A DNA stretch of 64,000 bases, taken from positions 31,682,001 through 31,746,000 of the forward strand of contig OZ024741.1 in the NCBI GenBank assembly GCA_964016885.1, written 5' to 3'. The stretch comes from Eledone cirrhosa. Taxonomy: Eukaryota. This document shows positions 59,565-60,518 of this stretch, one piece after another; position 1 is the stretch's first letter, and each line of letters starts with the position of its first letter. A program made the position numbers and the translations under genes. Below the pieces are notes generated by a model. It had not been told where the DNA came from and did no database searches. It worked only from the letters and a program-made list of their open reading frames with translations.

Positions 59565-60518
59565 AATGGAATAGAATGAAATGAAATGAAATTTCATTTC
59601 TCATTCTTAGTACGGCACTTACTTAAATATAAGTATGTATACGTAGATACATATATATATGTATACAGACGTACAGTAGCATGTATATATATATATATAT
59701 ATATATATATATATATATATACATATATATACATGCAGGCACGCATATATACATGTACGTATCAGTTTAGCGGACATTTATTATAATGTCCGCTTTGTTC
59801 GTTTGTAAGCAAACGGACAGCCTGATTTATGCCGTACGGTGTTAAGGCAACCACGTCACCTTTTTGTTCAACACTGATACAGGAACGATGTACTAGTTTC
59901 AAGCTTGTAAGCTATCGTCAGCACCGTATACCCTTCTGCCAGATGGTTGAACGTTCGAAAGTATATACTTTCCTTATGAAAATTAACGGCTGAGCAGCCT
60001 AATTTGCATATCGAGTGAGTTCAGTGGGCCAGGCGCACCGAACACGATAAAATGGAATAGAATGAAATGAAATTTCATTTCATTTCTCACTCTTATAACG
60101 GCACTTACTTAAATGTAAGTATGTATGTATACGTACATACATATATGTATACAGACGTACAGTAGCATGTATATATATTTATATACATATATATATACAT
60201 GCAGGCACACATATATACATGTAGGTATCAGTTTAGCGGACATTTATTATAATGTCCGCTTTGTTCGTTTGTAAACAAACGGACAGCCTGAGTTATGCTG
60301 TACGGTGTTAAGGCAACCACGTCACCTTTTTGTTCAACACTGACACAGGAACGATGTACTAGTTTCAAGCTTGTTAGCCATCGTCAGCACCGTATACCCT
60401 TCTGCCAGATGGTTGAACGTTCGAAAGTATATACTTTCCTTATGAAAATTAACGGCTGAGCAGCCTAATTTGCATATCGAGTGAGTTCAGTCGGCCAGGC
60501 GCACCGAAAACGATAAAC
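59565..60518 (-). mobile_element. Head-to-tail dimer of family X retrozyme-like unit, with HHRs at 59885-59927 and 60351-60393
   Basis: The two HHRs are 466 nt apart. acggtg-CTGACGA-t(a/g)gct..agctt-GAAA-ctag-TA|catcgt. No coding capacity. Confidence 0.85.

Follow-up and report, generated by a model that had tools for sequence, protein, structure and literature searches.

A high-copy hammerhead repeat of Eledone cirrhosa with U6-like promoter signals and Penelope-type insertion ends, a candidate non-coding retrozyme

The 64,000-nt stretch of Eledone cirrhosa DNA analyzed here (the window) contains, at 59565-60518 on the minus strand, a two-unit direct array that adjoins a (TA)n tract and belongs to a high-copy repeat, family X. 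The family is real, and its insertions carry unusually clean mechanistic footprints. On balance, we think that family X is a non-coding retrozyme with its own snRNA-type promoter, circularized units of 466 nt and an enzyme borrowed from Penelope-type elements (PLEs). Exact matches to a 21-mer within the ribozyme number 17,477 in the 3.0-Gb genome, and those to a 3′ 21-mer 37,571, with 0 for the reversed controls; the genome-wide search for the unit, proposed in a sequence-only reading of this DNA, thus returned a large dispersed family, and family X is a large repeat component of the E. cirrhosa genome.

Copies were sampled from 60 regions at the first listed ribozyme matches (with the last few of 100 places left out) and from 27 regions and 30 loci around matches to the 3′ 21-mer, all from the first 40 Mb of one contig; the 30 best BLAST loci formed an additional sample. 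Positions prefixed p refer to a 440-nt consensus with TA runs shortened, in which cleavage falls after p159. Four subfamilies could be distinguished, each 2-4% from its own consensus and 9-16% apart. A sister family, Y (8,114 pattern matches, units of 466-468 nt, 292/440 positions identical to family X), keeps the hammerhead core and loops, with paired helix bases that differ from those of family X. Family Y forms arrays of more than 30 units at L097 and L214-L243 (G000:C1:5738111-5752659); in one array, G25A, G27A and G39A with T44G and C56A recur in irregular order, which could stem from one template misread several times, from a mixture of sources or from errors in assembly. Contigs matching the unit were present in many variants in one sequencing run and in 4 in another, with 0 in two (four of six runs, of unrecorded kind and not informative on expression or ends).

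Table 1 Features of family X in the window
Feature	Position	Strand	Remarks
Unit 1 (5′ unit of dimer), 468 bp	60051..60518	-	subfamily c2, 1.9% from subfamily consensus
Unit 2 (3′ unit), 486 bp, longer internal TA tract	59565..60050	-	ends at tail end (B site)
TATGCAAATTAG element of unit 1	60465..60476	-	second copy 59999-60010
TATA box of unit 1	60427..60434	-	42 nt after element; second copy 59961-59968
Hammerhead 1 with extended helix I	60332..60418	-	core starts at 60387; cut predicted at 60357/60356
Hammerhead 2 with extended helix I	59866..59952	-	core starts at 59921; cut predicted at 59891/59890
Predicted 466-nt cleavage-to-cleavage monomer, candidate circle	59891..60356	-	folds at -149.6 kcal/mol
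Tail between two fixed insertion ends	59565..59626	-	sites A (near 59627) and B (near 59565); repeated at 60051-60112
(TA)n target tract	59380..59564	.	at element 3′ end
Older head-to-head insertion	22313..22740	.	B arm (RNA strand minus) and A arm (plus)
Older head-to-head insertion	30961..31841	.	B arm 30961-31308 (minus), A arm 31326-31841 (plus)
Older single-arm insertion	50108..50555	+	one unit and about 20 nt; ribozyme core broken

All four copies that had been reported from sequence alone were found in the window (Table 1), and all four adjoin (TA)n. The end of one unit runs directly into the start of the next, as had been described, with the junction at 60050/60051 in the dimer. The tandem arrangement claimed for the family holds for this dimer; the copies at 22313 and 30961, however, are head-to-head inverted pairs, both arms of the former being truncated 3′ of the ribozyme and the A arm of the latter spanning a unit junction. 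The two units of the dimer are 90.8% alike when indels in TA length are counted, and the predicted monomer folds at -149.6 kcal/mol (z -8.8 against shuffles). The ORF list holds no frame of at least 120 aa within the dimer units, the ORFs across the other window copies are TA-repeat read-throughs, and the arm structure includes no flanking LTR pair. The window also contains a perfect inverted repeat (27636-27751) made from a short element, other copies of which adjoin TA tracts at several loci; a 46-bp satellite in 57 copies with 95% match and a 47-bp array (46411-49022 and 54427-55002); and a PIF1 helicase frame (1310-3043, minus strand; Pfam PF05970, E 3.7e-62), probably part of a Helitron.

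A motif scan located one type I hammerhead per unit, as had been described, with CUGACGA at 60387 and 59921 on the minus strand, and the G-U pair described in helix I of the 59-60 kb copies is present. The predicted cuts after 60357 and 59891 therefore give a monomer of 466 nt. Helix I comprises 6 bp. The 4 bp of helix II stand on a U-U mismatch, and helix III has only 2 bp, set in the palindrome ACUAGU. Helix I of hammerhead 1 runs about 20 bp further, to about 60418/60332. These dimensions do not suit the label 'minimal' that the ribozyme had been given and instead fit the 'canonical' metazoan type I (PMC4209133), the minimal form having a long helix II, a short helix I and no helix III; in the same source, the canonical form is the dimer-acting type and the minimal form the PLE type. 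The intact motif that had been attributed to the full-length copies in general is found in both 59-60 kb units, the only intact ones among the window copies, and elsewhere only as a consensus: the ribozyme near 31570 is mismatched in both helix I and helix II, that near 31260 has a mismatch in helix I, and that near 50240 a broken core (C3U, and one A of GAAA missing), while the 22313 insertion has no ribozyme.

Across the family, the hammerhead core is intact in 153/175 gapless copies, and the helix I pair formed by p126 and p162 covaries (G-U 114, A-U 34 and U-G 27 of 180). Rfam assigned neither 59-60 kb unit to a hammerhead family at E up to 10, and the window-wide scan gave TA-rich microRNA noise among the 150 of 288 matches listed. 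A transcript of the dimer is predicted to self-cleave to 466-nt units, although activity may be low because of the U-U under helix II and a helix III of only 2 bp; among predicted frog dimers, only 1/9 is reported to have cleaved in vitro (bioRxiv 10.64898/2026.07.22.740005). Further hammerhead-like families lie in the window (22215-22260, 22860-22900 and 39669-39713) and at L061, L070 and L118; several of these also have a U-U under helix II, and that at L061 has two reversed octamers upstream.

Upstream of each ribozyme lies a promoter-like block. The TATGCAAATTAG element of unit 1 is identical at 12/12 positions to that found at -78 in one of the U6 genes in the same genome. Among the 13 U6 loci fetched (of 48 listed), four have TATGCWAATKAG at -77 to -79 together with TATA at -31, as does the single MRP gene; the nine others, which have neither element nor TATA, are probably promoterless copies. 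In the 7 U1 and 4 U2 loci viewed, TATGCWAATKAG is absent from that position, and TCAGT stands instead at about -57 with a TATA-like box; TCAG also occurs in the unit at the distance of the U1 element from TATA. The element is exact in 115/149 unit pieces of family X, against a background of 7 matches in 1.24 Mb, and family Y has the same element with the same 42-nt spacing to TATA. This spacing is 4-6 nt shorter than the 46-48 nt of the U6 and MRP genes, and the block is therefore termed U6-like rather than classed as a U6 promoter. The element also lies inside an inverted repeat and could act as an RNA hairpin, and the T runs at the unit end (T7 in c1, T6 in c7 and c8) would stop RNA polymerase III. 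U6 spacing would place the transcription start near 60403; the 5′ ends of arms are not concentrated there (8/169, expected 5.4). Host U6-type promoter signals inside the unit are likely to be what switches family X on. At L092, another pair of element and TATA stands at U6 spacing, possibly in an unannotated small-RNA gene.

The ends of insertions point to the enzyme that moves the family. They were counted in 169 arms from 100 loci, with BLAST-picked loci left out. The arms reach up to seven units, and their 5′ ends are variable and their 3′ ends fixed: 54 arms end at site A (p376-393), 80 at site B (p430-440), about 57 nt away, and 35 elsewhere, many of the last at the internal microsatellite. 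The 50 head-to-head pairs comprise 30 of type A+B, none of A+A or B+B, and 20 with an unclassifiable end, so that every classifiable pair (30/30) is mixed; tail-to-tail pairs number 0. PLEs are described with an inverted arm and a tail on one side (PMC8557442), and a PLE enzyme is reported to cut both strands and to extend them from two internal sites, one on either side of the tail (PMC11167929). A PLE-type enzyme is the likely mover of family X because its arm ends match this behavior, and mobilization by Penelope-type machinery, as the sequence-only reading had suggested, is supported by the two fixed 3′ ends, the one-sided tail, the mixed pairs and the TA targets. The rule of mixed arms, the promoter block and family Y did not figure in that reading. 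One apparent target duplication of 5-8 bp was seen, at L084, those elsewhere being hidden in TA tracts; metazoan non-LTR retrozymes are described with target-site duplications of >4 bp when present. An excess of arms end at the tail hairpin (p418-432; 17/169, expected 5.8, an interval chosen after looking); in the subset sampled by the 3′ pattern the figure is 5/71 (P 0.09, same interval). A Pol III terminator as the 3′ end was considered and rejected: c1 ends a few bases beyond its T7 run, and arms read through T7.

Which form of RNA is copied is the question on which the closest rival turns. In the 3′-pattern subset, 47/71 arms cross a cleavage site and 0 end there, and a cut linear monomer was rejected as the main template. 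A minor cluster of stops at p166-176, 7-17 nt 3′ of the cut (6/71, expected 1.8, likewise chosen after looking), may be due to RNA that had been cut or to pausing at the long helix. Arms that cross cleavage sites fit uncut RNA as well as circles, and a PLE-driven family whose template is an uncut linear multi-unit transcript, with homogenization at the DNA level and a hammerhead that trims precursors or is a passenger, is a reading that we regard as rather unlikely yet serious. Unprocessed RNA is reported as the dominant PLE substrate in vitro, and ribozyme mutants as not impaired in PLE insertion in vitro (PMC11167929); several B arms of family X break off shortly 3′ of site A, a position that twin priming on a single linear RNA would produce; and an alternating pattern at L177 points to local duplication of DNA. 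In the window dimer, the two units share two common lineage markers and 0 private variants.

The distribution of rare variants, by contrast, would require of such a linear template a homogeneous source of several kilobases each time. Of rare variants, 99/356 are common to opposite arms and 74/9041 to different loci; the sharing is mostly in the youngest subfamily, c1, whose units differ by 0.4% within arms vs 3.5% between loci. A bait for the rare variant A183G gave 126 matches, from which 16 hand-picked places were fetched; at one of these, L277, A183G and A266G occur in all 11 unit pieces of both arms. In these hand-picked loci, chosen by an A>G bait, A>G accounts for 8/12 variants shared by all units vs 22/94 unshared (P 0.004). 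A>G makes up 22/30 changes at L139 and 16/22 at L292, and L288 has a five-site A>G cluster in both arms; the clusters at these three insertions are on the strand of the ribozyme, a pattern expected from RNA editing. L139 (G000:C1:4531000-4532100) is palindromic, with 13 A>G changes over p50-189 in both arms that destroy the ribozyme; its arms differ beyond p200, and a third fragment lies at its center. A raw 3-fold A>G excess across the family was set aside, being inflated by subfamily polymorphism, and the corrected excess depends on L139: the family-wide excess disappears when that locus is removed (92/22066 vs 72/20034, P 0.35). A two-edit pattern had only 3 matches genome-wide.

Homogeneity of arms can also have sources other than a circle, because duplication of the L177 type occurs and inverted arms can convert each other. 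The shared rare variants and the three A>G-clustered insertions nevertheless favor copying of one RNA circle, and the conservation of the ribozyme and its extended helix, with covariation, also weighs against a linear template. From these sequence patterns we lean toward RNA circles rather than linear multimers.

The sequence-only reading had itself raised the possibility that the unit is simply the 3′ UTR of an autonomous coding PLE. The copies would then be truncated leftovers of the 3′ end or pseudo-LTR (pLTR) of such an element, which we consider improbable. The idea gains from reports that pLTRs carry hammerheads and that frog retrozymes match pLTRs (PMC4209133; bioRxiv 10.64898/2026.07.22.740005) and from the extent of our survey, which covers about 1.3 Mb only; within this, no coding PLE that continues the unit was found, and no ORF with RT and GIY-YIG domains lies between repeats, as in an autonomous PLE with pLTRs. 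What lies upstream of a unit is another unit, and no two of the 92 unpaired arms have a common 5′ flank at the same unit position. One of 219 arms, at L103, directly abuts part of a PLE endonuclease on the same strand, which would suit a coding parent, but the joint lies mid-ORF and could be a template switch. At L084, a family X repeat is inserted antisense into a PLE; both loci involve one PLE family, a candidate helper. Among 25 PLE endonuclease 3′ flanks, 0 carry the family X ribozyme, which is moreover canonical and not of the minimal PLE type. A scan of 305 records with a profile made from the 3′ modules of both families, and a helper search of the sampled loci with the window PLE proteins, revealed no coding element with this module.

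Frames for RT and GIY-YIG that we take, from their motifs, to be of PLE type occur in the window and in 50/305 records; Pfam named none of them. In the window they are broken and lie at 19617-21292 (+), 35583-37518 (-), 7801-8619 (-) and 51931-52512 (+); two of the RTs are 37% identical, and the first family has copies 87-95% identical at several loci. The window frames have no cysteines inside GIY-YIG and in this resemble the Hydra clade as described in PMC8557442. The LINE at 60519-63230 (+), which has frameshifted endonuclease and RT frames and stands head to head with the dimer, was rejected as a parent, being on the opposite strand and of an independent family; it starts at 60519 without the upstream sequence common to 11/11 other copies viewed.

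That family X is a dispersed satellite or fold-back element of DNA without an RNA stage is very improbable: palindromic arms and local duplications at L077, L139 and L177 would suit it, but arms in which the 3′ end is fixed and the 5′ end varies, A>G clusters confined to one strand at three insertions, and the conserved fold of the ribozyme do not.

The retrozyme reading can be set out as a cycle. Transcription would begin about 45 nt upstream of the ribozyme and continue into the next unit, after which two tandem hammerheads are predicted to pair via the ACUAGU palindrome and to release a unit that contains the promoter. A host ligase, as in other animals, may close this unit. The insertion ends suggest that a PLE reverse transcriptase-endonuclease then cleaves the (TA)n target on both strands and starts synthesis from the two broken ends, one on either side of the 57-nt tail, so that two inverted arms arise. 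Running round the template would give an arm anything from one unit to seven, and every arm that has two ribozymes, such as the 59565-60518 dimer, could become a new source. A more specific version, in which a captured U6/MRP-type promoter travels in the circle and the PLE enzyme primes both ends of the break and rolls round, so that family X is a self-promoting circular-RNA replicon, is put forward tentatively and with less confidence than the retrozyme assignment itself; a PLE enzyme that rolls round one promoter-bearing circle would restore, in every long arm, both the promoter and paired ribozymes. Family X yields concrete predictions: transcription from near 60403, cleavage at 60357/60356, a circle of 466 nt, and two priming sites around the 57-nt tail.

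In published work on animal retrozymes, PLE mobilization and circle templates are proposals. The retrozyme class, its link to PLEs and, in one amphibian case, an snRNA-type promoter are already published. Our search of the literature returned no description of family X; most subscription journals, Dfam and Repbase lay beyond it, and the family may be catalogued there. The amphibian case is newt satellite 2, whose promoter was reportedly studied by Coats, Zhang and Epstein in 1994. Its snRNA promoter, reported as a polymerase II promoter, is cited in PMC2220036. Judged by description only, satellite 2 is like family X a hammerhead repeat with an internal snRNA-type promoter; the element of family X, however, matches host U6 and MRP genes.

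Metazoan non-LTR retrozymes are likewise built of tandem units that code for no protein and have a single canonical type I hammerhead apiece (PMC7229834, PMC7761336, bioRxiv 10.64898/2026.07.22.740005), and share with family X a weak palindromic helix III, a highly self-paired unit and PLEs in the genome; the axolotl HHR_Amex2 even has the same U-U at the base of helix II (PMC7229834). The listed groups in bioRxiv 10.64898/2026.07.22.740005 include no mollusc. The 466-nt unit is longer than the 170-400 nt of PMC7229834 but lies inside the range of 51-972 bp in bioRxiv 10.64898/2026.07.22.740005. Family X differs in having a promoter-like block, whereas retrozymes seem promoterless according to PMC7761336, and in insertions that are mostly short and two-armed, unlike those of metazoan retrozymes; its cleavage and circles are predictions. 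In the anatomy of its insertions, family X resembles endonuclease-bearing PLEs, which show partial tandems, an inverted 5′-truncated arm and a one-sided tail (PMC8557442, PMC11167929, PMC4209133), as well as two internal initiation sites, microsatellite targets and a hammerhead upstream of the initiation sites. It differs from them in having no ORF, a tail of about 57 rather than 30-40 nt, and a canonical instead of a minimal hammerhead. If the circular-replicon reading is true, the genome would preserve in these insertions a record of the rolling-circle step proposed for retrozymes.
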